From NCBI GenBank assembly GCA_963736195.1, contig CAVTNP010000001.1:690133-754132 (forward strand): DNA of 64,000 bases. Reading direction: 5' to 3'. Shown here piece after piece: positions 24,215 through 47,978 of this stretch. Source of the DNA: Ignavibacteriota bacterium. GTDB lineage: Bacteria > Bacteroidota > Ignavibacteria > Palsa-1295. Both the position numbers and the translations under genes were made by a program. Under the pieces are notes generated by a model. That model saw only the letters and a list, made by a program, of their open reading frames with translations, made no database searches and was not told the DNA's origin. Position 1 is the first letter of the stretch; every line of letters starts with the position of its first letter.

Positions 24215-24280
24215 AGTTGTGACTTTTAGGAGTTTTTTGTGTCATGCAACCAATGGCGCTGGTTCCGTCATATTTATTTT

Positions 24281-27200
24281 ATGAATACTCCTCTCGGTCG
24301 CTCTGGAATTTTTGCGGTCTCTAAACACACTCTAGCATCCACCTTTTCTCGGATTCGGACAAGATCGCTTCTTACGCTCGCGGTGCTTGCCTTGCTGGGC
24401 TGGTACTCGATTCGTGAAACGAATGCCCATTCCGGTGGAATAACTGGACAGACCCAAAAGACAACGAATACGGGTTGTTATTGTCATTGCAATGAAGCCC
24501 AGTCAAGCACAACCGTGACACTGGCGTGTTCAAGCGGCTCGTCTCCGCTGACAGCAATTGCCAATACGACCTACGATTTCACGATAACGGTCGCGAACAG
24601 CAGTGAAGTGGATGGTGGATGCGACATAGCTACCTACTCCGGAAACGGTCTCACCGCTGGGTCGGGCTTATATGCCTCGGGTGGCGAACTGACCCACAGT
24701 AGTCCTAAAAGTTTTGGTGGCAATGGATATTGTACCTGGAGCTTCACCTACACTGCCGGGTCATCAGAAGGATGGGATACTATTTACGCGACGGGCAATG
24801 CCGTCAATGGGGATGGCAGCGACGATAATGGCAATTGGGACGATCTGTGGAATTGGGCGCCGAAATTTATTATCCATACCGTTACACAGCCGGTTCGGAT
24901 GTCCCTCAGCCGAACAACGATCGCATTAGGGAAGATTCGGGTGGGTAACCGTGCATCAGATTCACTCACAGTGATTTCGAATGGCGAAGCTGCCATCACC
25001 ATTAGTTCGAGTGGCATGAAGAATGGCGCACCGTTTTCGAGCTATCCAACCACGACAGATCGATCTCTCAATCCCGGTTCCACCGAGATCGACAGCGTGA
25101 TCTTTGCCCCAACCGCGCGCGGCACTTTCTCCGATTCACTGATTTTCATTACCAATTCCGATACGTTGCCGGAGCAGAGGATGGGCGCTTACGTTAGCGG
25201 CCAGGGAATTCAAGCCATCTTCGATGCACCGAACGGCACAAACCTCTCATTCGGGAATCTTCGAGCGGATCGGACGGCACAGCAAACCTTTTCGTTCTCC
25301 AATTCTGGCGATGATACGCTATTTCTCCAAACGCCTTCCATTTCCGGGAGCGGTTTTTCGATCGTGACTGGGCTTTCCACACTTGCGTTCCCTCCAAATC
25401 AATCTGGAAGTGTGGTGGTGCAATTTGCTCCTACGTCGGCGCAATCGTATAGCGGGAGCTTGAGCTTTACCGCTTCGAACGGTGTCTCAGCTCCAACGGT
25501 ATCGCTGAGCGGTACCGGAATACTTCCCCAGATTCAAGTAGCAAATTCCGAAGCGCTGGGCTCGATCCGAGTGGGACAAACCTTGCAAGGTGGCGTTGCG
25601 ATCAAGAATATTGGAACGGATACACTGCATCTTTCCAATATATCGCTCACCCAGCCTTCCTCCCGCTTTTCACTCGGTGGTTATAGCTCTGCTGTCAATC
25701 CTGGGGGTACCGATACGGTGCATCTTTCCTACACGCCGAACGCAGAAAGAGCCGATACAGCAACGCTCACTTTTTCCACCGACGATCCAACAGATTCAGC
25801 CGTAGCGGTCACCATTATTGGCAGCGGAACCTTGCCGCACATGCTGATCTCTGAAAACGGGGACACCGAAAATCTGGGTCAGGTGAAAATATATTCCAGT
25901 GTATTTACTGATATAGCCGTTTCGAATAATGGTGCGGCTGTCCTTCATATAACGAGTGCATCAGCGGGGCCAACTCCTTTTGGTGTCGAGGTAAGTCCGG
26001 ATACAGTCAGCTCCGGCACATCTTCCAATATCCTGGTTGGATTTTCTCCAACGATGACCGGGGCGTTCAACGGAAAACTTGTCGTGCATGGAGACGATCC
26101 GAACAATCCTTCAGATACCGTATACCTAACCGGAACCGGAATTAACAGTGCGCTTTCCATCGATCCAGGCAGTATTAATTTTGGATCGGTTCCTGTACAT
26201 GCCAGCGTGATCGATACTATTATGCTCAGCGATTCCGGAACCGCAAATGTTAATATCTACAACGTACAATTACTTCCATCAGTGGGTGCTTTCGAGATCC
26301 TCGGAGAACCACCTACCGAAGTGACTGCTGGTGGAAGCGCAATCATCGTCCTGAGTTTCAAGCCAGATAGCGATGTGAATTATTCTGGATCGATCACCTT
26401 GACTACTGACGATCCCAGTGCAACCACCCGGACCATTAATATCAATGGCACCGGGATTACCGACCCGTTCACGGTAACACCTTCGATGCTCGATTTCGGC
26501 GAGGTACCTGCTATGAAAAGCGTTACGGATACCATTTCGCTGGACAATGAGGGAACTTCAATAGTGAACATTTCGAAGTATCAGCTTTCTCCGGCTTCGA
26601 GCGTATTTTCTATCGTCGGCACGCCCCCAGATCATGTGAATTCCAATGGGACGGCATCCCTGATCGTACTGTTCACGCCGGATAGTGCCGGCAATTACGA
26701 TGGAGCGATCACGATGACTACTAATGATGCAAGCGATCCCAGCCGCATCATTAGTCTGACAGGCACTGGTATCAAAGGCTCGCTTGCCTTATCTCCAGCC
26801 CAGATCGATTTTGGAACAGTCCCGATTGGGCACGATTCGTCCATTCGGGTAGCCTTGCGCAATGTTGGTTCCGCAAGTGTAACGATCGATTCAGTTGAAC
26901 TGAAAGGAAGCAACCCCAGCGCATTCAGCTATGGCGCATTTTCCGCCCCAACAACATTAGCCGCGAACGACTCGATCTCCTTTAGCGTGAGCTTCGATCC
27001 GACATCATCTGGAAGTTATAGTGCATCGATACGACTTGTTCTCGAAGATGGCACGAAAATAAACTTACCGCTGCAGGGGATTAGTCAGAACACAGCGAGC
27101 GTCTTACAGGATAATGCTGCGTTCGCATCGCTTTCGATTTCTCTATCCCCAAATCCTGCTGGAAATTCCGTATATCTACACACTACGCTCGGTGAGTCTG

Positions 27201-27391
27201 CTGAAGCCGCATTGTCAGTCTTTGATGAGGCGGGCAAAGCCGTGATCGTCCGCTCGCTTGGAATGCTCTCGCAAGGGCAGCATGACATTCTGATCACAAC
27301 CGAATCTCTCTCTATTGGGACCTATTTCGTTCGTTTGAGCAGTGGGAATTTCGCAACTGCCCAGGCAAAATTGATCATCGACAAAAAATAA
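24281..27391 (+). CDS. Large secreted adhesin-like protein with about 8 tandem 'choice-of-anchor D'-like Ig-fold repeats and a T9SS C-terminal sorting domain
   Basis: Repeated 100-aa modules (LxFGxV...DTxxLxNxGxxxLxI...). A C-terminal Por tail ...IGTYFVRLSSGNFATAQAKLIIDKK. Start chosen at MNTPLGRSG (the track ORF begins at 24239). Confidence 0.75.
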   Translation: MNTPLGRSGIFAVSKHTLASTFSRIRTRSLLTLAVLALLGWYSIRETNAHSGGITGQTQKTTNTGCYCHCNEAQSSTTVTLACSSGSSPLTAIANTTYDFTITVANSSEVDGGCDIATYSGNGLTAGSGLYASGGELTHSSPKSFGGNGYCTWSFTYTAGSSEGWDTIYATGNAVNGDGSDDNGNWDDLWNWAPKFIIHTVTQPVRMSLSRTTIALGKIRVGNRASDSLTVISNGEAAITISSSGMKNGAPFSSYPTTTDRSLNPGSTEIDSVIFAPTARGTFSDSLIFITNSDTLPEQRMGAYVSGQGIQAIFDAPNGTNLSFGNLRADRTAQQTFSFSNSGDDTLFLQTPSISGSGFSIVTGLSTLAFPPNQSGSVVVQFAPTSAQSYSGSLSFTASNGVSAPTVSLSGTGILPQIQVANSEALGSIRVGQTLQGGVAIKNIGTDTLHLSNISLTQPSSRFSLGGYSSAVNPGGTDTVHLSYTPNAERADTATLTFSTDDPTDSAVAVTIIGSGTLPHMLISENGDTENLGQVKIYSSVFTDIAVSNNGAAVLHITSASAGPTPFGVEVSPDTVSSGTSSNILVGFSPTMTGAFNGKLVVHGDDPNNPSDTVYLTGTGINSALSIDPGSINFGSVPVHASVIDTIMLSDSGTANVNIYNVQLLPSVGAFEILGEPPTEVTAGGSAIIVLSFKPDSDVNYSGSITLTTDDPSATTRTININGTGITDPFTVTPSMLDFGEVPAMKSVTDTISLDNEGTSIVNISKYQLSPASSVFSIVGTPPDHVNSNGTASLIVLFTPDSAGNYDGAITMTTNDASDPSRIISLTGTGIKGSLALSPAQIDFGTVPIGHDSSIRVALRNVGSASVTIDSVELKGSNPSAFSYGAFSAPTTLAANDSISFSVSFDPTSSGSYSASIRLVLEDGTKINLPLQGISQNTASVLQDNAAFASLSISLSPNPAGNSVYLHTTLGESAEAALSVFDEAGKAVIVRSLGMLSQGQHDILITTESLSIGTYFVRLSSGNFATAQAKLIIDKK

Positions 27392-27468: not shown

Positions 27469-28065
27469 TTAGTGGGCTGACTTTCTCACAGCGCCATGAT
27501 GTTGTTCGGGCGCCGGAGCAGCCGCCTTAGCAGCTTCTTTCTTGGCTGGCTCGGCCTTGGCAGCAGGAGCCGCAGCCTTCGTCGTGTCGGCTGCAGGAGC
27601 CGCGGCAAGCTGCGTAATCTTCTGTCCGAGGCTGGTGTGGGCGTCCTGGAGACTCTTCCATTTGTCACTGAGATCGTTGAAATTCGTCCCAAGTTTGGTA
27701 TCGGCATCCTTGAGCGCATCTGCCTGATCGGGTGTAGCATTCATGTACTGCTTCGTGCTATCGACGAGTGCATTCACAGCCGCCATATCGGCCTCATGCT
27801 TGGCAAAATCAGCTTTGATCATGCCGATCACAGTTGTATCCGCACCGGGTTTTTGCGCTGCGGTCGCGAGCGTTGCAGCCCATTGGGTGTGGTCGGTATT
27901 CATGCCGGCCATCGCAGTATTGATCTGGTCAATAAGGGTTTGAGCGGAGGCTTTCTTGGTTGCGTAATCGGTTTCGAGTTCGGTATTACGCTTGCTGCAA
28001 GCCGCCAGCCCAATGGTAAAAGCGGCAATCGTCGCTAAAATGGTCAATTTCCGTAGAGAGATCAT
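27469..28065 (-). CDS. Hypothetical lipoprotein with Ala/Lys/Pro-rich C-terminus
   Basis: MISLRKLTILATIAAFTIGLAACSK lipobox start (the track ORF begins at 28134). The C-terminus is low-complexity: AAAPAADTTKAAAPAAKAEPAKKEAAKAAAPAPEQHH. Confidence 0.5.
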   Translation of the reverse strand: MISLRKLTILATIAAFTIGLAACSKRNTELETDYATKKASAQTLIDQINTAMAGMNTDHTQWAATLATAAQKPGADTTVIGMIKADFAKHEADMAAVNALVDSTKQYMNATPDQADALKDADTKLGTNFNDLSDKWKSLQDAHTSLGQKITQLAAAPAADTTKAAAPAAKAEPAKKEAAKAAAPAPEQHHGAVRKSAH

Positions 28066-28111
28066 GCTAAAATAGTTAGTTTGAGTGAGCAGTTCACAAG
28101 AAGCGTCCGAA

Positions 28112-28179
28112 TTGTGATCGCTCATCCATTGCATGATTGCTCATCTAGCATGATCGCTCATACTGCATGATTGCTCATG
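28112..28179. repeat. Four tandem about 17-bp repeats (G/C)ATGAT(T/C)GCTCAT just upstream of the lipoprotein gene
   Basis: gtgatcgctcat / gcatgattgctcat / gcatgatcgctcat / gcatgattgctcat at regular 16-17-bp spacing. Confidence 0.6.
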
Positions 28180-29269: not shown

Positions 29270-30292
29270 CTACCATTGGAAACCAAGCGTGGCTTCCAAT
29301 CCAATCGAACCTAAAGGTGATGTGGCCGGTGAAAATAGCTGTTCCGCGCGAGCAGACATATCGAGCGTAAGTCCATTCGCAAATCGGTATTCAATACCGG
29401 CAGCTTCCGAGGAAAGGAATCCTACCGTGCTCGCACCTGCAACAATCTCCGCGCACGGAGATAACACATCATTCGGATTCAGGTCGAAGCGGTAGCCAAC
29501 ATCAAGCGAGTTTACTAATGATGTTGATGCCGACGCTGTTTGAGAAGGACTTCCAAGGGTAAGTTGTGTTGGCAATCCACCGACAGTAACCGTGGTATCG
29601 CGAGGCATGACAGATTGGGCGGCGTGATTCACGGTAAAAGAACTGCGCCGCAATTCCACAACGAACGAGGATGAGCCAAAAATGTGATACCGCACTCCCG
29701 CTGCGCCAAAGATAGAACTTGTGGAATAGCTATTGCCCGGGAGCAAAGCTCCACCAGCTACAAATGCACTCCAACGGTTAGCTGTCATCTCGTTCTGACC
29801 AGATACTTGGGTTAAAATTGTGGGATCAGAAGGAGCAGCAACGGGGGTCGCGATCGATTGTATATTCGATTGCGTCGAGGATTTTTTTCCCGATATATTC
29901 TGCGGAGCGGGAATCGTATTTTGTGTTTCACTAGAGTTATCTGTAACGCCAGTTTCTAAAGCTTCACCTTGCATTGCAGTGTTCTTTGCAGCGTTTGTTG
30001 CAACATTCACAGTTAAATGGGAAGGATCGGTCGCTTGGGATGCATCCGTCGCATACGACCCATGCAGGGCTTGCGTATTCGGCAACGATTCATTCACAAG
30101 GAAATGACTACCCATGAAAAGTCCAATACCTGCGAGCAATACCACACCGGCAGCATAATGAAAAAAGACTGCGAACGCCGATCTGCGGCGCGTATCGTGG
30201 TTCATCACAAGCGCGCGCATCTCGCCGAACGGGTAATAGGATGGCGTAGCATTTAGCGATCGGATGTAGGTTTGGTATGAGTCAGAGCGCAT
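29270..30292 (-). CDS. Anti-sigma-like single-pass membrane protein with S/T/Q-rich periplasmic linker and C-terminal outer-membrane beta-barrel domain
   Basis: It lies immediately downstream of the ECF sigma gene and overlaps it. The order is a short cytoplasmic N-terminus, a TM helix AFAVFFHYAAGVVLLAGIGLFMG, about 120 low-complexity residues, then about 175 aa of alternating amphipathic strands ending ...LGFQW. The track ORF start at 30394 overlaps the sigma gene by 112 nt, so 30292 (MRSDSYQ...) was chosen instead. Confidence 0.55.
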   Translation of the reverse strand: MRSDSYQTYIRSLNATPSYYPFGEMRALVMNHDTRRRSAFAVFFHYAAGVVLLAGIGLFMGSHFLVNESLPNTQALHGSYATDASQATDPSHLTVNVATNAAKNTAMQGEALETGVTDNSSETQNTIPAPQNISGKKSSTQSNIQSIATPVAAPSDPTILTQVSGQNEMTANRWSAFVAGGALLPGNSYSTSSIFGAAGVRYHIFGSSSFVVELRRSSFTVNHAAQSVMPRDTTVTVGGLPTQLTLGSPSQTASASTSLVNSLDVGYRFDLNPNDVLSPCAEIVAGASTVGFLSSEAAGIEYRFANGLTLDMSARAEQLFSPATSPLGSIGLEATLGFQW

Positions 30293-30875
30293 AATTTTCG
30301 ATTGCCTCCATGAGAATAACATTCTTCTCAGCATGTTGCCCGAGTTGATCTGAGTTCTTTTCTTTGTTACTAATTTCTTCGGGTTCGATCCCAAGCATTT
30401 TTTTCAGCATTTCGCGGCCGCGTCGTAATCTGCTTTTCACGCCGCTCAGTGTGCCACCTTGAATTGCACGAATTTCTTCGAGCGAAAGATCTGCAATATC
30501 GAATAGTAAAATGGTTTCCTTCATCTTTGCCGGCAGTCGGTCGACCACAGTCATTACTATTGCAATTTCCGCTGCGACATCCGGCATTGCGTTTAGATCG
30601 AGGATCGATTCCAGCGTGCTTGATTCAACAATCGTAAATCGTTGATCGCGGCGATGCCAGCGTTTGTACGTTCTTGCTACGATACGATAGAGAAATCCAG
30701 GGAACCCAGATTCATCGCGGTTAAAATCGAACCGTTCGAGCGCAACAAGAACTGCCTCGCTGACGAGATCTCTTGCCTGCTCCAGGTCGTGCGTCATGGC
30801 AAGCGCATATCGCAAAAGCCGAGGATAGACCGGCTCCAGCAGTGCAAGAAATCGTTCTTTGTGCGCGTTTTCCAT
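30282..30875 (-). CDS. ECF-subfamily RNA polymerase sigma-70 factor
   Basis: Sigma-70 region 2 (LVSEAVLVALERF...FLYRIVARTYKRWHRR) and region 4 (LSLEEIRAIQGGTLSGVKSRLRRGREMLKKML). It is a paralog of 44995-45633. Confidence 0.85.
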   Translation of the reverse strand: MENAHKERFLALLEPVYPRLLRYALAMTHDLEQARDLVSEAVLVALERFDFNRDESGFPGFLYRIVARTYKRWHRRDQRFTIVESSTLESILDLNAMPDVAAEIAIVMTVVDRLPAKMKETILLFDIADLSLEEIRAIQGGTLSGVKSRLRRGREMLKKMLGIEPEEISNKEKNSDQLGQHAEKNVILMEAIENYAL

Positions 30876-30882
30876 GAGTATT

Positions 30883-30912
30883 CCCCCTCCTAAAGAAGGA
30901 GGGGGCTTTTTT
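30883..30912. promoter_or_regulatory. GC hairpin CCCCCTCC-TAAAGAA-GGAGGGGG in the 35-nt gap between the upstream lipoprotein gene and the ECF sigma gene; on the mRNA strand it sequesters the Shine-Dalgarno GGAGG of the sigma gene
   Basis: Read on the minus strand: UAA-AAAAGCCCCCUCCUUCUUUAGGAGGGGGAAUACUC-AUG. The 3' stem half contains GGAGG, 7 nt before the ATG. A near-identical hairpin occurs at 33489-33516. Confidence 0.45.
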
Positions 30913-31891
30913 ATGGTACTACATATTTGATCCTCACAGCATTTGGCCCGAAGGGCGTGGTCAGGAAATGCTGATATTGCCCGCCGATCACCGGAAGCCC
31001 AGTCATATTCGAATGTCCGACGGCATAGACGTACACCGCCTGTCCCGCCGGCAGCGAATAGGGCATGAGCGTGGCAACGTCCATCGTGAGCGTATCCTTA
31101 AAATTCCCGCCGATCATTTTCGGCGATTGAAAGCCGGAATGATATGCGTCATTGGTTAACTCCGTTGCAAGCCATGCATCCTCCGTGCTATCTGGGGATT
31201 GCGCGCTTGGAGACGCGGGAAACAGCCCGCTATCGAGCGAAGTATAAACATAGATATTACCCGGCGCGAGCGTGCCCGTAACTTTCCCGCTCAGGATCAT
31301 TCCGTTGGAACTTCCAGCCGTATCGTAAATGACCACTTCAGAATCATGCGTGGTGACGGTCGTATCGAGTTTGCCGAGGCTATCTTTGATCGTACTGTCG
31401 ATGACAGTTATGATCTTCGTCTGGCTGACATTGAACACGTAGGATACGCCCGTCATGGTGATGGTATCGGTCGATTCCTGGACAAGGTAGGCATCATTGA
31501 TAATATCAGTTCCCACTCCAATGATATGATGCACCGGATAGATCATGGAATCGAATCCCGGCTTCCAGAAAATGATATTATACACTCCGGCGGGAATGTT
31601 ATCGATCTCGAAATGGCCGCCGGTATCTGCAGTTGCCTGATACGGCGTTCCCTGAATCGAGATTTGAATACCCGTTGGCGAAAGCCCCGTTGGCGCACCG
31701 GACGCATACGCCGCAACCGTTCCCTCCAGCTTTTCGCCGTTGCTGGTCGCCGCCGGAGGGTCAGAAGGGCTGGAGCAGCTTGAAAAAACCATTGCAAAAA
31801 TGGCGAAAAGGAGTCCGTATAGGCGGACTCCTTTATCGCTGTAGCGGCGCGGTTCCCGCGCCAGCCCCATGTTGCAAATTCCTGAGATCAT
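30911..31891 (-). CDS. Hypothetical lipoprotein with carboxypeptidase-regulatory-like (CarbopepD_reg) beta-sandwich domain
   Basis: Lipobox ...FAMVFSSCSS. GGHFEIDNIPAGVYNIIFWKPGF is the classic CarbopepD_reg motif. Confidence 0.55.
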   Translation of the reverse strand: MISGICNMGLAREPRRYSDKGVRLYGLLFAIFAMVFSSCSSPSDPPAATSNGEKLEGTVAAYASGAPTGLSPTGIQISIQGTPYQATADTGGHFEIDNIPAGVYNIIFWKPGFDSMIYPVHHIIGVGTDIINDAYLVQESTDTITMTGVSYVFNVSQTKIITVIDSTIKDSLGKLDTTVTTHDSEVVIYDTAGSSNGMILSGKVTGTLAPGNIYVYTSLDSGLFPASPSAQSPDSTEDAWLATELTNDAYHSGFQSPKMIGGNFKDTLTMDVATLMPYSLPAGQAVYVYAVGHSNMTGLPVIGGQYQHFLTTPFGPNAVRIKYVVP

Positions 31892-31936
31892 TCGTCCGGC
31901 AGAGGGCGGGGGGACCCCGCCACTACAGTTAATATG

Positions 31937-33316
31937 TCATTCCTTCACGATCTTCTTCGTTGTTACACTATTGCCAGAAGCAATTCGGATATAATACGTT
32001 CCGGGCGTGACATTCGAGAGATCGAGCGTAAGGTTCGTATTGCCTCGCGAATTCTCGGTTTTCACCGATTCGCCGAGCACATTCATCACCATTACATTCG
32101 AGCCCATCGGAATGTTTTGCAGTGTGACGACGCCATTCGTTGGATTGGGCGATAGTTCGATCTGAGAGACCGGCTCCGTTGGTGCGACCGATTCATTATC
32201 GTTGATGTGCATGATGGAGTTCGGTGGGGCTTGAGAATAATCGAAGGTGAGTGAATCACATTCAAACTCATTCTGTATCTCGCTTGGCTGATTCGGCTTC
32301 GGAGGCACGCTTGCACCTGCTGCATAGATGATAACATTGCCCCCATCGTCATAACCTTCCCCAGGCACACACGCGGCACCCGGCTTCAAGTAAATCAAGT
32401 CGCCCTCGCTCGCCACGACAGTAGCACCGGCCTCGGCGAAGAAAGTGTCTCTCGACTCGGACCACGCTGTCACCGTGACGCCAGGATTGACCCAATAGGT
32501 GCCAGGACTGTAGATCCTTCCATTCGAATCGAGACTATATATCGTAACACTCGAATCGAGCACGACCGCAGAGCGAGGAACCACCGGAGGAGAGCAATCG
32601 AACACATAAATTGTGTCGTACGCCATTCTCATACAACCGGTGGCAGTGTTGACTTCTCGGACGCTCACATACTTATAGCCTCCCGTCGAGTACGAAATGG
32701 GTGGCACAATGGTGTCCTCGTAGATGGTCACCGCATAAGCTCCCATCGCGGTAGCAGGCGTAGCATCTGCGCCAAAATCGCAAAAGACGCTGTCTATGGT
32801 CGGTGGCGGCGAGGGCATAAAATATATCCCACCCGAGAGTGGGGCACCCAAGAACGGAACCCCAATAAATCCAATATTAGCACGACCAAAGTTAAGGCGA
32901 AATCCAAATTCTGGCGCATTCGGATAATAACCAACAACGATATTACTTCCATTATCAGCACTTGTAATGTAAGGATTTGCACCTATTACACGGATGCGGT
33001 AATGTGCGGACCCTAATGCTGTTTTTGGAATAGCTGTCACAAGCGTAAACGTGCCCGGCAGAGAATCAATGAATGAGCCGATATTGCTGAAATCATTATT
33101 ATTGAAGCTTCCAGAAGTATCCAATAGTTGCACTGTAAAGGCATTTGCATGACCCCACGTCCCCGTTGCGGTAAATGTAACAGAGAATGGATCACCCAAG
33201 CAAAATGTGGTTCCGGATATTGAGTCTAACGTTATCGTTTGAGCGCAGGGAGCTCTTGGCTCTGCAAGCAGCACAACCGCGCAAAAGACCGCAAGAAAAG
33301 TACTGATTTTTTTCAT
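31937..33316 (-). CDS. Secreted protein of unknown function with T9SS C-terminal sorting domain (paralog family member 3)
   Basis: Signal peptide MKKISTFLAVFCAVVLLA. It shares the N-terminal QTITLDSISGTTFCLGD and CDSLTFDYSQ blocks with 4979-6193 and 6248-7444. C-terminal sorting tail ...GTYYIRIASGNSVTTKKIVKE. The track ORF extends to 33388. Confidence 0.7.
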   Translation of the reverse strand: MKKISTFLAVFCAVVLLAEPRAPCAQTITLDSISGTTFCLGDPFSVTFTATGTWGHANAFTVQLLDTSGSFNNNDFSNIGSFIDSLPGTFTLVTAIPKTALGSAHYRIRVIGANPYITSADNGSNIVVGYYPNAPEFGFRLNFGRANIGFIGVPFLGAPLSGGIYFMPSPPPTIDSVFCDFGADATPATAMGAYAVTIYEDTIVPPISYSTGGYKYVSVREVNTATGCMRMAYDTIYVFDCSPPVVPRSAVVLDSSVTIYSLDSNGRIYSPGTYWVNPGVTVTAWSESRDTFFAEAGATVVASEGDLIYLKPGAACVPGEGYDDGGNVIIYAAGASVPPKPNQPSEIQNEFECDSLTFDYSQAPPNSIMHINDNESVAPTEPVSQIELSPNPTNGVVTLQNIPMGSNVMVMNVLGESVKTENSRGNTNLTLDLSNVTPGTYYIRIASGNSVTTKKIVKE

Positions 33317-33636
33317 AGCCGAATTTAAGTAAAAAAGTGAACAAAAATGGTTTGTTTCCAATGCCGCAGAGTTTCCGGAAATCCCCACACGTATAACTTG
33401 CCGGAAGCCGGGTAGAAAGTTTCTGGGAGGGGTAAAATTATTTGGGTGAAGAAGTAACGCAAGACAAAACAGAGTTCACTGAATTACACCCCCTCCTTCT
33501 TTAGGAGGGGCTTTTTCAGTGGACTCCATATAATTGACGCAACTTTCAGCATTCTAAAGTGTTCTTTAGATACGAGCTTTTCAGATTGACTCGTTTCGGG
33601 GCAGTTCATGAAAAGTCTGCTAAGGTCGATAATTAT

Positions 33637-33666: not shown

Positions 33667-33766
33667 CAGCGCGTTTTAAATAGTGTAGAGACTTCTGACT
33701 TGATAAATGGGGCAAGCGAATATGGGCGCTTACCGCGGTGTTCAATCTCCCATAATACTCAAAATC

Positions 33767-35245
33767 ATGAAAATTCGTATCGCCGTCATTAGCTTAATAA
33801 TGTGTCTCGGAGCGAACCTACGTGCCCAGACCTGGCAATTTACCGGATCCCTGAATACGGAGCGCCGGTTGGAAACCATTAACGTGCTCCAAAATGGGAA
33901 AGTCCTCGTTACCGGCGGGGATGATATGGAGGGGAATGCGCTCGCCTCCTGCGAGATCTACGATCCGGCAACCGCCTCATGGAGCTACGCTGCATCGATG
34001 CAATTTCCAAGAGAGCGGCATACCTCCAACGAACTTTCGGATGGCCGAATCGTGATCATCGGGGGAAATACCAACAATATCAACGAATGGATTGCGACGC
34101 CAAGCATCGAAATTTACGATCCATCGACGGATACCTGGACACCCGGCGGCTCGATGTATGTTCCGCGCGAAAATCACACTTCTACCCTTATCAATGACAG
34201 CATGATTTTGATCAGCGGGGGACTTACCGGCCAAGAAGGAAACTGGCAGGTTCTTACTGAGTGTGAGATCTATAATGTAAATTCACTTCAGTGCACCGTT
34301 ACGGGGTCAATGTCCCAACTTCGGCATGACCATGCCGCTGCTTTACTCTCCGATGGGACGGTTCTTGTTGCTGGTGGACGAACCGGCGGCGCTGGAAGCG
34401 ACTATTTGGCAGAGTGCGAGATCTTCAATCCGTCTTCAGGAACCTGGGCGATTGCTCCACCGATGCCAGAGGCTCGCATTGCGCCGATCACCGCTGTCTT
34501 TTCCGATAACTCCGTTCTGATCGCGGGTGGACGTAAAGACGATAACGATGCCGCCGAGGCAGCGGACGTTTACAGTCCCGGCGCTCCAGCCTGGACGGCA
34601 GTCCAGAATATTTTGGTGCCCTCGACGTGGCAGGGAGGTACGGTATTACCGGGTGACCGTCTGCTCATGACCGGAGGTATCATCGGTGGCGATTGGTCCG
34701 ATCCATCTGGTCAGAGCCCAGTCAATACTCCTACCTGCGAGTGGTACGATAAGCCGAACCAGCAATGGTACTATGCTCCGACGATGAATGAGCCACGCGC
34801 AGAGCATGGAGCAGTTACCTTTACTCAAACTGTCAATTCGGGCCTGCCGACGCAACTGGTACTCGTCGTTGGCGGGATCATCGGTGTTGCAACTGTAACC
34901 AATACATGCGAAGTGCTCGATGTTGGTTCAGGCGCGATCGCAAACTACATTGCACATCAGGAGAGCATCGAGTCAGCGGTCGCTCCAGCAAATGCTCCGG
35001 CAAATATGCTAACTATTAGCTACACGAACAATGGACCGGCGCTCGATCTCGTGCTTGCTGCCAGCGAAAATGTGACAACTGAGCTCGTTTCGATCGATGG
35101 CCGAGTGGTCTTCAACATGGATGAGCAGCTTGCCGGTGGCGAACATGTTCTCAATCTTCCTTCCAGTTTGGCCTCCGGGATGTACCTGGTTCGCGTGAAC
35201 GCGGGCGGGAACGTAATGACTTCGAAGATACAGATCACCCAGTGA
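33767..35245 (+). CDS. Kelch-repeat beta-propeller protein with T9SS C-terminal sorting domain
   Basis: Signal peptide MKIRIAVISLIMCLGANLRAQ. There are about 6 Kelch-like repeats (VLVTGG..., IVIIGGN..., ILISGG..., VLVAGGR..., VLIAGGR..., LLMTGG...). C-terminal sorting tail ...GMYLVRVNAGGNVMTSKIQITQ. Confidence 0.75.
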   Translation: MKIRIAVISLIMCLGANLRAQTWQFTGSLNTERRLETINVLQNGKVLVTGGDDMEGNALASCEIYDPATASWSYAASMQFPRERHTSNELSDGRIVIIGGNTNNINEWIATPSIEIYDPSTDTWTPGGSMYVPRENHTSTLINDSMILISGGLTGQEGNWQVLTECEIYNVNSLQCTVTGSMSQLRHDHAAALLSDGTVLVAGGRTGGAGSDYLAECEIFNPSSGTWAIAPPMPEARIAPITAVFSDNSVLIAGGRKDDNDAAEAADVYSPGAPAWTAVQNILVPSTWQGGTVLPGDRLLMTGGIIGGDWSDPSGQSPVNTPTCEWYDKPNQQWYYAPTMNEPRAEHGAVTFTQTVNSGLPTQLVLVVGGIIGVATVTNTCEVLDVGSGAIANYIAHQESIESAVAPANAPANMLTISYTNNGPALDLVLAASENVTTELVSIDGRVVFNMDEQLAGGEHVLNLPSSLASGMYLVRVNAGGNVMTSKIQITQ

Positions 35246-44994: not shown

Positions 44995-45633
44995 ATGACA
45001 CTACAGGCAGCGAGCATTTCGGCTCGCGGTAACGAGAAACACACGCGATTCATGGCCCTTCTGGAGCCGTGCCTTGCGAAGCTTTCCCGTTATTGCCATG
45101 CGATGACAAAGGATGTGGAATCGGGACGCGATCTGCTATCGGATGCGATCCTGCTCAGCTACGAGAACTTCGAAAGACTTCGAGCACCCGAAGCCTTTAC
45201 GAGCTATATCTTCACAACGGCGCGGCGGTTATTTTACCGGCGCGAACGGAGAAAAAAGTTCTGGGGTGTGCTCGGAAGCGAAGCGGAAACACTCGTGGAT
45301 GAGCGGGAACCCACGCCCGAAATGCGACTCGATCTCGAAGCGCTCGATCGCGCACTAACGCATTTACCCGAAAAACAACGCGAAGCCGTGATACTCTTCG
45401 AAATATCCGGACTCTCGCTTGCGGAAATTCGGGAAGTGCAAGGCGGATCGCTTTCGGGTGTGAAATCGCGCATCGTGAGAGGCCGCGAGAAGCTTGCGGT
45501 CCTGCTCGGTGAGCGGGAGTCTGAACAGCCGGGGACGACAGTTCGACAGCAGGCGCGGACGCCTGCTCCACGCGAGCACTCAACATCCTTTGAACGCGCA
45601 CAGGTCGCTACTCTAATAAGGGAGAAACTATGA
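44995..45633 (+). CDS. ECF-subfamily RNA polymerase sigma-70 factor (paralog of 30282-30875)
   Basis: Region 2 (LLSDAILLSYENF...YIFTTARRLFYRRERR) and region 4 (LSLAEIREVQGGSLSGVKSRIVRGREKL). It shares the unusual QGGxLSGVKSR block with the other ECF sigma. Confidence 0.85.
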   Translation: MTLQAASISARGNEKHTRFMALLEPCLAKLSRYCHAMTKDVESGRDLLSDAILLSYENFERLRAPEAFTSYIFTTARRLFYRRERRKKFWGVLGSEAETLVDEREPTPEMRLDLEALDRALTHLPEKQREAVILFEISGLSLAEIREVQGGSLSGVKSRIVRGREKLAVLLGERESEQPGTTVRQQARTPAPREHSTSFERAQVATLIREKL

Positions 45634-47978
45634 AGAACAAACCGCTTCAACCATCCGAGAAATTAGCGAAGCACTTCGCGGCATACCGCGAGGAAGCGCC
45701 GCTGATCTCTGCTCCCGAAGTCGAGAATCTCCTTGCCGGTAGTGCCACTGCTGACCACCCACGCAACGCATTTTCTTTCAGGAGAATTTTTATGACACTC
45801 AGCGGACTCGCCGGACTTGCGGCTATCAGCTACTTCGCATTCTTTAGTTCATCAAATGGGACCAATGGGACTACTACTATCAATGGGTCCCAAATGACCC
45901 ATCCGTCCCATAACACCCCGAATACTACGAAACTTTCGCAGCTTGCAACGCCAGCAAGCACGACCACGAAGCCCACCCCACAACTTCACATAAACGACAA
46001 CCCCCACGGCCCATGGAGCGCCGGCAACGACCAGTTCTACGCCGATCTCTCGCAGAAAGAATTAGCAAAGCTGGGAATTGTGGTTCATGGTGACTCCATA
46101 TTGACCTATAAACTCAATGATAAGGATAGTGTCGTATGGACGCAATTTTCTGAATATTCGGTTCCGGGTATAAAGTACAAAGGTCATTCCATTGGCGGTG
46201 GGGGGAAGTTGGCCTCTGCGCCGCAGGGCGTGGAAGCTCACCGCTTTTATCCGATTCTCATGACCTACTCGAACGGCAATGGCGCAGCCTATCGCATCGA
46301 GGAAGGTGACCAAAGTGAGTGTGGAATGATCGGGCCGGAAGATCTGAATAAAGCATTCCGTGCATGGCTCGAAACTCCTGGAACTCCCGGGCTGCGGACA
46401 CTGGGATTTACCTCCTCATCCACAATGTCGTCGCCGTGCAAAAACTGTCCTCCCATCGAAAGCGACACTATTAAGATCACGGTCGGAAAAGATCTGGCGC
46501 CTTCTCCATTCCCATTAATTGCACCAAAAATCGATAGTCTCTCCGGCGATCTTCAGGGTGCATTATTGCAGCTCGCTCATTATTATGAAGGCAGCATAGC
46601 TATACAACCTTCGGTTACGTGGCCCAAAAATCTAACTATAAAAGTGGATACGTTTACCGCTCGGAACTTGCTCGATCAAATGGACGCCGAGGAGAATGGT
46701 GGAGTAGAACAGCATTTGCGTTCGATCATGGCTCGCTTGAACGAACTCATTCCCGTCATTGTGCGGCCGCACGGCGGTTCCGGCGCACCCGATTCGAACG
46801 ACTACATCTTCTGGTATGAACCAAGCGATGAGCTGTTCGATGCGTTGCCCTCGGCGCAAGCATCAATCATTCGAGCAAAGTTGAATACGCCACCGCATTG
46901 CCTATCCATGCCGAACGATGTGCTGAAGTCAGCGGAGATAACCTATTGTGTTGCCGAAACCCAAGAGGTACAAGTGAGGGTGCAAGATTTAACGGGCAAA
47001 CAACTTATTGGTATGTCGCAACTTGCATCTACTGGAGATAATATCCTGCAATTCACAACAGAGACACTTCCATCGGGCATGTACATCGTCACCGTGCAAG
47101 ATCATGACGGCACGGAACGCTCGCAAAGGCTGTGGGTCGAGAACGCACATCCGAAATCCTATAAAGACGCGATTTGGGATAAGAATGCACCGCACGCACC
47201 CAACCAAATGTGGTTTGTGAATACCGACGATCCAACTCCTGTGAATGATCTGCCCGTGGAGCATTCGACTTCACTTCTCATTCCGAGTTTGTCGTTGGAT
47301 TCGGCGGCTCTTTCCGGGATCGGAGTACAAAGCAATAGTGTACTATCCGCGTATTACACTCAAGGCTCTCAACCAAATGCAGTTAACTACATGGGTATTG
47401 TGAGAAGTTGGGGAGCAGTTATTCAGACCCTTGCAAAGAGTTCGGTGACTGGTGTCACTGTCCCTATATTCGAACCGTCATTAGTGACAGATGGAATCGG
47501 TCGTAAGCGAGTATTCGCGGGTGATTCCAATTATAGCGAACTTGTTCCAATTCTTCTTCGCGCTGGAACTCCAAGTGATACCATCGGAGCTACGGATCTT
47601 ATTTTCTGGTACAAGCCAACGCCAGAATTTCTTGCAGATCTATCGGATTCTGCCCGAGCCATAGCACAGAGTCTCGCCAGTGTCAATGGTGGAACTAACA
47701 CAACCAAGGTACATGGTTCGATCCAGCAGGCCGCGGTATTCCCAAATCCATCGAAAGGGAACTTGTCCGTGCAGCTAACGCTGGGCGGTGCGCGCACCCT
47801 TACGTTCACGCTTCGGAATTTATTAGGCCAGCAAGCGGCGCCATCGGTTCAAGCGCGGATGGATGGCACGGGCGAGCAGTCGCTTGATTTCAGCACGGTT
47901 CCGGAAGGCGTGTATCTCCTCGATATTTCCTCCGATCAGGGCGAGCGGTATATCGAGCGGGTGGTGATTGCACATTAA
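45630..47978 (+). CDS. Anti-sigma-like single-pass membrane protein with large extracytoplasmic domain and T9SS C-terminal sorting domain
   Basis: Its start overlaps the sigma stop (ATGA). There is a cytoplasmic segment of about 50 aa, then a TM helix IFMTLSGLAGLAAISYFAFF, then about 700 aa ending in a Por-type tail ...VFPNPSKGNLSVQLTL...GVYLLDISSDQGERYIERVVIAH. It is paralogous to 62712->64000. Confidence 0.6.
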   Translation: MKNKPLQPSEKLAKHFAAYREEAPLISAPEVENLLAGSATADHPRNAFSFRRIFMTLSGLAGLAAISYFAFFSSSNGTNGTTTINGSQMTHPSHNTPNTTKLSQLATPASTTTKPTPQLHINDNPHGPWSAGNDQFYADLSQKELAKLGIVVHGDSILTYKLNDKDSVVWTQFSEYSVPGIKYKGHSIGGGGKLASAPQGVEAHRFYPILMTYSNGNGAAYRIEEGDQSECGMIGPEDLNKAFRAWLETPGTPGLRTLGFTSSSTMSSPCKNCPPIESDTIKITVGKDLAPSPFPLIAPKIDSLSGDLQGALLQLAHYYEGSIAIQPSVTWPKNLTIKVDTFTARNLLDQMDAEENGGVEQHLRSIMARLNELIPVIVRPHGGSGAPDSNDYIFWYEPSDELFDALPSAQASIIRAKLNTPPHCLSMPNDVLKSAEITYCVAETQEVQVRVQDLTGKQLIGMSQLASTGDNILQFTTETLPSGMYIVTVQDHDGTERSQRLWVENAHPKSYKDAIWDKNAPHAPNQMWFVNTDDPTPVNDLPVEHSTSLLIPSLSLDSAALSGIGVQSNSVLSAYYTQGSQPNAVNYMGIVRSWGAVIQTLAKSSVTGVTVPIFEPSLVTDGIGRKRVFAGDSNYSELVPILLRAGTPSDTIGATDLIFWYKPTPEFLADLSDSARAIAQSLASVNGGTNTTKVHGSIQQAAVFPNPSKGNLSVQLTLGGARTLTFTLRNLLGQQAAPSVQARMDGTGEQSLDFSTVPEGVYLLDISSDQGERYIERVVIAH

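Follow-up and report, generated by a model that had tools for sequence, protein, structure and literature searches.

We surveyed a 64,000-nucleotide stretch of an Ignavibacteriota bacterium genome (GenBank assembly GCA_963736195.1, contig CAVTNP010000001.1, forward-strand positions 690,133 to 754,132; hereafter the window, numbered from its first letter) and found a gene whose product probably spans the cell envelope, reaching from cytoplasm to outer membrane, and restrains the sigma factor of the extracytoplasmic function (ECF) type encoded just ahead of it. The gene, a 340-codon open reading frame (ORF) at 29270-30292 on the minus strand, overlaps the stop of the sigma factor gene (30282-30875, minus strand) by 11 nt. 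Its product combines a short conserved N-terminus, a single hydrophobic segment, a long disordered linker and a C-terminal domain predicted to be an eight-stranded outer membrane β-barrel.

The ORF can also be read from a TTG far upstream. We take the ATG at 30292 as the real start because the resulting protein is identical to one that has been called publicly, because every full-length homolog begins at that methionine, and because this ATG lies within the last sigma codons (TATGCGCTCTGA) and is preceded by GGAGG. Residues 1-38 (30179-30292), the presumed sigma-binding module, are hydrophilic and include six lysines or arginines, with RRR at 35-37 directly on the N-terminal side of the helix that follows. 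The sole hydrophobic segment of the protein is residues 39-66 (30095-30178; KD19 maximum 2.03; a 27-residue helix), and there is no lysine or arginine within the 24 residues after it, giving a positive-inside charge distribution. Residues 67-172 (29777-30094) form a low-complexity linker of 106 residues (14% threonine, 13% alanine, 12% serine, 10% asparagine and 8% glutamine), and residues 173-340 (29273-29776) are a β-strand region terminating in LGFQW. An initial annotation, made from the sequence alone, had described this anti-sigma-positioned gene overlapping the sigma stop, the sequence of N-terminus, transmembrane (TM) helix, linker and barrel, and the ending in LGFQW; all of this held up on analysis except the linker length, which had been put at about 120 residues.

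Pfam and NCBIfam scans of the 340-residue protein gave no useful match and no anti-sigma domain. The sole NCBIfam line, an LEA adhesin (E 0.023), was dismissed as low-complexity noise. A recognizable class I anti-sigma domain (ASD) occupies about 80 residues at the N-terminus; here, 38 residues precede the membrane, and neither Pfam nor NCBIfam matched a domain of this class (ASD/zf-HC2, RskA).

Whether residues 39-66 anchor the protein or belong to a discarded leader was argued by comparison across the family and with the other leaders of the operon. The initial annotation had allowed for the latter, in which case this would be an ordinary small outer membrane protein (OMP) with a long, cleaved Sec signal peptide, its barrel carrying a disordered periplasmic extension, and a member of the sigma regulon rather than its regulator. 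The barrel and its β-signal are typical of OMPs, small residues (G-I-G, A-x-G) lie near the end of the hydrophobic segment, and the database scans detect no anti-sigma domain, all as that account would have it. However, conserved residues numbering 29-39 (median 38) lead the hydrophobic segment in all 44 family members, whereas the two upstream genes of the operon encode short leaders whose n-regions are much shorter and whose h-regions span about 14 residues, against the 27 residues of the segment here. The N-terminus is also conserved much like the barrel (58% versus 68% identity among close homologs and 30% versus 31% family-wide), which would be unexpected in a discarded leader, and carries a family motif, Y..(6)..LRxRExxPxFxxIxxLV. 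Cleavage would moreover leave the operon without an anti-sigma candidate, none of its other products having a cytoplasmic segment, and would sit poorly with an overlapping start that is kept across the family. We therefore regard the ordinary OMP as improbable, since a discarded leader is unlikely to be so long or so conserved, and take residues 39-66 for an anchor of N-in orientation whose preceding segment is cytoplasmic and functional. Residues 39-66 are helical in the AlphaFold2 model, as fits a single α-helical TM anchor after the N-terminal segment.

The linker behaves differently from both ends of the protein. Its sequence is poorly conserved (32% identity among close homologs, 9% family-wide), yet its length is held at 96-146 residues (median 112) over the 44 members.

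The AlphaFold2 models rest on alignments of 16-17 sequences, 17 of them for the full-length protein. The full-length model has helices at residues 5-15 and 23-30 and a long helix at 33-65, an unstructured stretch at 66-173 (pLDDT 26-33), and β-strands from 174 to 339 (pLDDT 70-86). Modeled alone, the C-terminal domain (166-340; mean pLDDT 79.8, pTM 0.66) can be read as eight long strands, with a short hairpin set into the second outward loop, and this hairpin is conserved (RDTT..GG..Y..TIG). For both models, all 50 listed Foldseek matches in the PDB are integral outer membrane barrels, the best of them eight-stranded: the OmpA TM domain (TMq and TMt 0.58-0.59), a designed eight-strand barrel (TMt 0.79), and NspA, OmpX, Ail, OmpW, PagL and the OprF N-domain. 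The last residue is tryptophan or phenylalanine in 41 of the 44 members and position -2 is phenylalanine, tyrosine or tryptophan in 41 of 44, as in an aromatic β-signal (..G.GF.W); close homologs end in E-A-G-I-G-F-E-W. Together, these observations point to a C-terminal eight-stranded outer membrane β-barrel as the predicted fold. With eight strands, both barrel ends would be periplasmic, which lets the tether come in from the inner-membrane side.

The β-domain could instead be a soluble periplasmic sensor, lipocalin-like or another soluble barrel, carried by a conventional single-pass anti-sigma factor. Most anti-sigma factors do have periplasmic sensor domains, soluble eight-stranded barrels exist, and the Pfam OMP family OMP_b-brl (PF13505) is matched weakly and in just 4 of the 44 members. 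Yet every significant structural match is to an integral outer membrane barrel, with no lipocalin or other soluble barrel among the 50 listed; hydrophobic faces alternate in most strands; and neither the terminal aromatic signal nor a length-constrained tether of at least 96 residues, needed only for reaching the outer membrane, would be expected of a soluble domain. We give this explanation little chance of being correct.

For the 197-residue sigma factor, Pfam gives Sigma70_r2 at E 6.7e-10 and Sigma70_r4_2 at E 8e-07, and the NCBIfam model sigma70-ECF (TIGR02937) scores 64 bits over a cut-off of 42.9; it has the make-up of the ECF group, with only regions 2 and 4 in about 200 residues. Its region-4 motif is IQGGTLSGVKSRLRRGRE, and QGGTLSGVKSR is invariant across eight sigma orthologs and paralogs; the pairing of such sigmas with their partner protein is kept in every locus examined, as the initial annotation had raised as a possibility. 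Sigma identity is 70-87%, far above the conservation of the partner, and the clade comprises 309 relatives at E<=1e-5, the few named ones being Kapabacteria, Kapaibacterium or Bacteroidota bacterium. In all eight loci compared, the sigma gene and the gene for the 340-residue protein overlap by 8-11 nt, with an overlapping TATG start and a purine-rich, Shine-Dalgarno-like element upstream. The sigma C-terminus (30282-30320, minus strand) carries a tail of about 35 residues past region 4 that is variable except for its end, ..MEAIENYAL; distant members finish in ..RYV or ..DYAA. The overlapping TATG lies in the tyrosine and alanine or valine codons of this end, and the downstream gene draws its GGAGG from the MEA codons, so the conservation of this end is probably imposed by translational coupling and not by sigma function.

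Two further genes lie upstream on the same strand. Directly ahead of the sigma gene is a lipoprotein gene (30911-31891, minus strand), which the initial annotation had also recognized: its product has a lipobox cysteine (FSSC) and weak Pfam matches to a CarboxypepD_reg-like domain (PF13620 at 29.5 bits, under the cut-off of 32.3; PF13715), and an fn3_3 match (PF14686 at 28.6 bits, over the cut-off of 24.4) that overlaps the PF13620 match. The lipobox is present in seven of nine orthologs and paralogs as called. The first gene of the operon (31937-33316, minus strand; we set its start at Met25 of the listed ORF, 31937-33388) encodes a secreted protein that has a short Sec signal peptide (MKKISTFLAVFCAVVLLA...) and carries at its C-terminus a sorting domain of the type IX secretion system (T9SS; Pfam Por_Secre_tail, E 1.5e-12).

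This order of T9SS-tail protein, CarboxypepD_reg lipoprotein, sigma factor and 340-residue protein is retained in orthologous blocks, along with the 11-nt overlap, in differing flanks. The T9SS-tail gene is found upstream in five loci (L001, L003, L004, L009 and L013) and is absent from three-gene paralogs. In distant members, at about 20-30% identity, the triad of lipoprotein, sigma and anti-sigma genes is kept with overlaps of 8-11 nt, and across all loci examined, with anti-sigma identity as low as about 20%, the lipoprotein gene stands directly upstream of the sigma gene. Loss of the sigma linkage among orthologs, which the initial annotation had also considered, was not observed: a sigma gene adjoins in every locus examined.

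Homologs sharing words with the 340-residue protein are few (14-17 among 5.8 billion sequences), and a HMMER scan of 1.84 billion representatives found 65 clusters with the same architecture, most of them 326-383 residues long with end-to-end matches and the remainder shorter fragments. Because the same architecture is conserved over these 65 representative clusters, this is a conserved family and the arrangement is not due to chance. All cluster members are unnamed or labeled "hypothetical", the few with an organism name being Candidatus Kapabacteria or Kapaibacterium. A genome search with one family alignment returned five loci, and the genome matches of the family are metagenome-assembled genomes (MAGs) labeled Ignavibacteriota or Kapaibacterium; NCBI taxonomy now places Kapaibacterium within Bacteroidota, class Eximiradiia. 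Two paralogous systems (L010 and L015) occur on one MAG contig. In two loci from MFD MAGs (L008 and L010), tblastn spans query residues 1-340, yet the called proteins are of 217 (P0012) and 178 (P0017) residues; these truncated calls are probably assembly frameshifts, or else pseudogenes. Given the constant lipoprotein gene and the frequent T9SS cargo gene, the protein might span the envelope in a structural or secretion role, for example as a tether or chaperone of the T9SS cargo or lipoprotein, with the sigma factor controlled otherwise, but we find this very improbable, as the coupling is specific to the sigma gene, even in three-gene operons that have no cargo, and the conserved cytoplasmic N-terminus would have no role.

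A candidate promoter for the operon lies at 33394-33423 (minus strand), about 70 nt before the ATG of its first gene, and has the form GAAACTTTC-N17-GTTA(T). ECF promoters have a GAAAC -35 element and a -10 element of the CGT or GTT type. The motif was matched once in the window with up to two mismatches allowed, which is unremarkable on its own (0.43 matches expected by chance; 34 of 100 shuffles reach it), and no copy beyond the operon's own was found in the window that could indicate another regulon member. Its weight comes from conservation: each of 10 orthologous loci has the motif a single time, and always in the syntenic place. In the paralogs with three genes (L011, L015 and L016), a -35-like GAAACTTTC precedes the lipoprotein gene, at equal spacing to TCA(C/T). 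The ECF-promoter form of the motif suggests that the four-gene operon is autoregulated, the sigma factor presumably recognizing its own promoter. A similar motif before das1, the sigma gene of a related system discussed below, was dropped: GAAAC is present, but the spacing differs.

Other nucleic-acid elements accompany the operon. Two oppositely oriented copies of a GC-rich hairpin of 21 nt, CCCCTCC-N7-GGAGGGG, are present where none is expected by chance: at 30884-30904, between the lipoprotein and sigma genes, where it covers the GGAGG of the sigma gene, and at 33490-33510, upstream of the operon promoter. Both copies resemble intrinsic terminators on the plus strand. A role for the intergenic copy as an attenuator was rejected, as orthologs, in which the two genes abut, lack it, and it stands outside the conserved system. 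Because of this absence, the hairpin has the look of a small palindromic element, mobile or repeated. The 45-nt gap between the T9SS cargo and lipoprotein genes holds a GC stem-loop with no T-tract (GGCGGGG-TCC-CCCCGCC, approximately 31895-31930, minus strand), kept in one ortholog (L003; GGCGGGGTTCCCCCGCC), which could be an RNA-processing or partial-termination element setting the ratio of cargo to regulator transcripts.

The initial annotation could match this architecture to no described system, a claim that does not stand: an anti-sigma design joining two membranes in one polypeptide, the Dma family, was published for gut Bacteroides in 2024 (Pardue et al., 2024; PMC10927553). In B. thetaiotaomicron, Das1, an ECF21 sigma factor, is pulled down by the first 40 residues of Dma1 (BT_4721), and full-length Dma1 was detected with N- and C-terminal tags, with only the barrel found in outer membrane vesicles; the study reports sigma binding by residues 1-40 and an outer membrane location for the barrel (PMC10927553). 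Four parts define Dma proteins: an anti-sigma segment at the N-terminus, a TM helix, a long tether that is disordered, and a barrel at the C-terminus. Their genes adjoin those of ECF21 sigmas, a group that takes in Das1, Das2 and EcfO, and they are said to be restricted to Bacteroidota (PMC13088901, on Dma2). Since the known Dma proteins came from tblastn searches with a 95% coverage threshold, divergent Dma-like versions would be missed.

The likeness to Dma1/Das1 (BT_4721/BT_4720) and to Reo/EcfO of B. fragilis is close in layout. They share the short N-terminus, the TM helix, the tether and the eight-stranded barrel; the anti-sigma gene of Dma1/Das1 lies directly downstream of the ECF sigma gene, a lipoprotein gene adjoins the pair, and both systems belong to Bacteroidota in the current NCBI taxonomy. 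The details differ. Dma1 has 420 residues, 48 of them before the TM helix, versus 340 and 38 here; its tether, read by eye, is rich in charged residues, unlike the uncharged S/T/N/Q-rich one here; das1 and dma1 are 2 nt apart where we see an 11-nt overlap; the lipoprotein at the Dma1 locus is NigD-like and encoded on the opposite strand, in contrast to the CarboxypepD_reg type whose gene lies upstream here and shares the strand; the operon here is headed by a T9SS cargo gene; and the region-4 motif of the Das1 ortholog is LGINEKSSASQ instead of QGGTLSGVKSR.

For sequence comparison, we drew das1-dma1 loci from gut metagenomes, taking the dma1 start from the published primers; one of these (L036) has NigD-like, Das1-like and Dma1-like genes. 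Several results weigh against the reading of our protein as an envelope-spanning anti-sigma factor of the Dma type. The family profile aligned to Dma1 orthologs with a non-significant hhalign probability of 1-2%, and the Pfam family OMP_b-brl_2 (PF13568), which the Dma1 ortholog of L036 matches as a control (E 1.7e-06), had no match at E<=1 in the 340-residue protein or the 44 members. The sigma factor appears no nearer to the Das1 ortholog than expected of unrelated ECF sigmas. The N-terminal helices of the AlphaFold2 model are of low confidence (pLDDT 44-55), and the alignments beneath the models are shallow. The best hhalign alignment, itself non-significant, is co-linear, placing F22 on W27 and then the TM helices on one another. 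The sigma factor is 27% identical to the Das1 ortholog (E 2e-11), a generic ECF similarity; its best PDB matches, SigH, SigE and SigW, are similarly weak, a comparison made on a different statistical footing. Because no homology to Dma1 or OMP_b-brl_2 is detectable, the likeness is architectural only, and by sequence comparison the Kapabacteria family appears as a divergent, sequence-unrelated variant of the Dma type and not an ortholog.

Other known systems share single elements with this one. Dma3 (BT_2778) also exerts trans-envelope sigma control and ends in an outer membrane barrel, with a sigma domain fused at its N-terminus that is lacking here, where no family member exceeds 383 residues. 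FecA-FecR-FecI likewise lets an outer membrane signal control an ECF sigma factor through a single-pass inner-membrane anti-sigma factor, but does so with three proteins, a TonB-dependent 22-strand receptor and a separate FecR among them; receptor and anti-sigma factor would here be one polypeptide, and the operon has no gene for a TonB-dependent receptor. In the RseA/sigma-E system, envelope or OMP stress leads, through DegS and RseP, to regulated proteolysis of a single-pass anti-sigma factor and release of the sigma factor. The logic is likely alike here, although RseA has a recognizable anti-sigma domain and a soluble periplasmic domain and senses OMP C-termini indirectly via DegS, whereas the protein studied here brings an OMP domain of its own. 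In fold, the C-terminal domain comes closest to the small eight-stranded barrels of the OmpA N-terminal domain, OmpX, NspA and Ail (8-12% identity), which belong to proteins whose signal peptides are cleaved and which lack a cytoplasmic or TM part.

By analogy with Dma1/Das1, from which localization to both membranes, proteolytic release and the nature of the signal are extrapolated, we propose that the first 38 or so residues stay in the cytoplasm and would sequester the co-translated ECF sigma factor. Residues 39-66 would anchor the protein in the inner membrane, and the disordered tether of about 106 residues would cross the periplasm; at about 38 nm, the contour length of the tether exceeds our own rough estimate of the width to be bridged (20-25 nm). 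The C-terminal 168 residues would be inserted in the outer membrane as an eight-stranded barrel. A disturbance at the outer membrane or cell surface, in which the conserved outward hairpin of the barrel may take part, or failed insertion of the barrel, could then lead to proteolysis of the tether and TM segment and release the sigma factor. Once free, it would transcribe its own operon from the GAAACTTTC-N17-GTTAT promoter, yielding the T9SS-secreted protein, the lipoprotein, the sigma factor and the anti-sigma factor, and presumably further envelope genes of its regulon elsewhere.

A second ECF sigma gene in the window (44995-45633, plus strand) is a paralog of the first (phmmer E 3e-35, with a shared VQGGSLSGVKSR motif). 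Its stop overlaps, as ATGA, the start of a 782-codon ORF (45630-47978, plus strand) whose product has about 50 N-terminal residues and one hydrophobic segment (approximately 53-72, preceded by FRR), then S/T/N-rich sequence, a large region of unknown nature and two matches to Por_Secre_tail, the T9SS sorting domain (best at 703-780, E 3.5e-17). A membrane-anchored protein that sits in the anti-sigma position and ends in a T9SS sorting domain would add a further trans-envelope design, apparently one not yet described; a full-text literature search for "anti-sigma" together with "Por_Secre_tail" found nothing on-topic. An RE..P motif that seemed common to the two N-termini was set aside, with an N-terminal profile HMM giving E of about 4 whether the TM segment was included or not.

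The neighborhood looks rich in genes whose products are secreted proteins of the T9SS type (24239-27391, plus strand; 31937-33388, minus strand; 33707-35245, plus strand), as would fit an organism of the FCB group with a large T9SS secretome. The product of 31937-33388 has the Pfam Por_Secre_tail match; the tails of the 1050-residue repeat protein and the 512-residue protein resemble such domains by eye. The gene at 27469-28134 (minus strand) encodes a predicted lipoprotein of 221 residues (..LAAC) whose C-terminus is of low complexity and rich in alanine and lysine (AAPAAKAEPAKKEAAKAAAPAP); it matches no family.

A bolder reading, which we hold tentatively and consider rather doubtful, is that the family is not a diverged Dma but either invented the one-polypeptide design separately or represents a sister form of very great age. 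If so, the hairpin RDTT..GG..Y..TIG might be a surface receptor monitoring the co-encoded lipoprotein or T9SS cargo. Together with the T9SS-tailed partner of the paralogous sigma factor (45630-47978), it would then suggest a lineage that repeatedly joins modules targeted to the outer membrane to a short sigma-binding anchor.

What is new here is a shorter, sequence-unrelated Kapabacteria variant of the Dma design, with an apparently different sigma clade, a different partner lipoprotein, a T9SS cargo gene and a defined promoter motif. The same predicted design is now seen in an uncultured, deep-branching lineage of Bacteroidota, and its compact 340-residue form offers a second model in which to consider how an inner-membrane-anchored protein would be handed over to BAM, how long a tether needs to be and how a barrel may sense. 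It also suggests that searches based on architecture instead of sequence would find more such systems.

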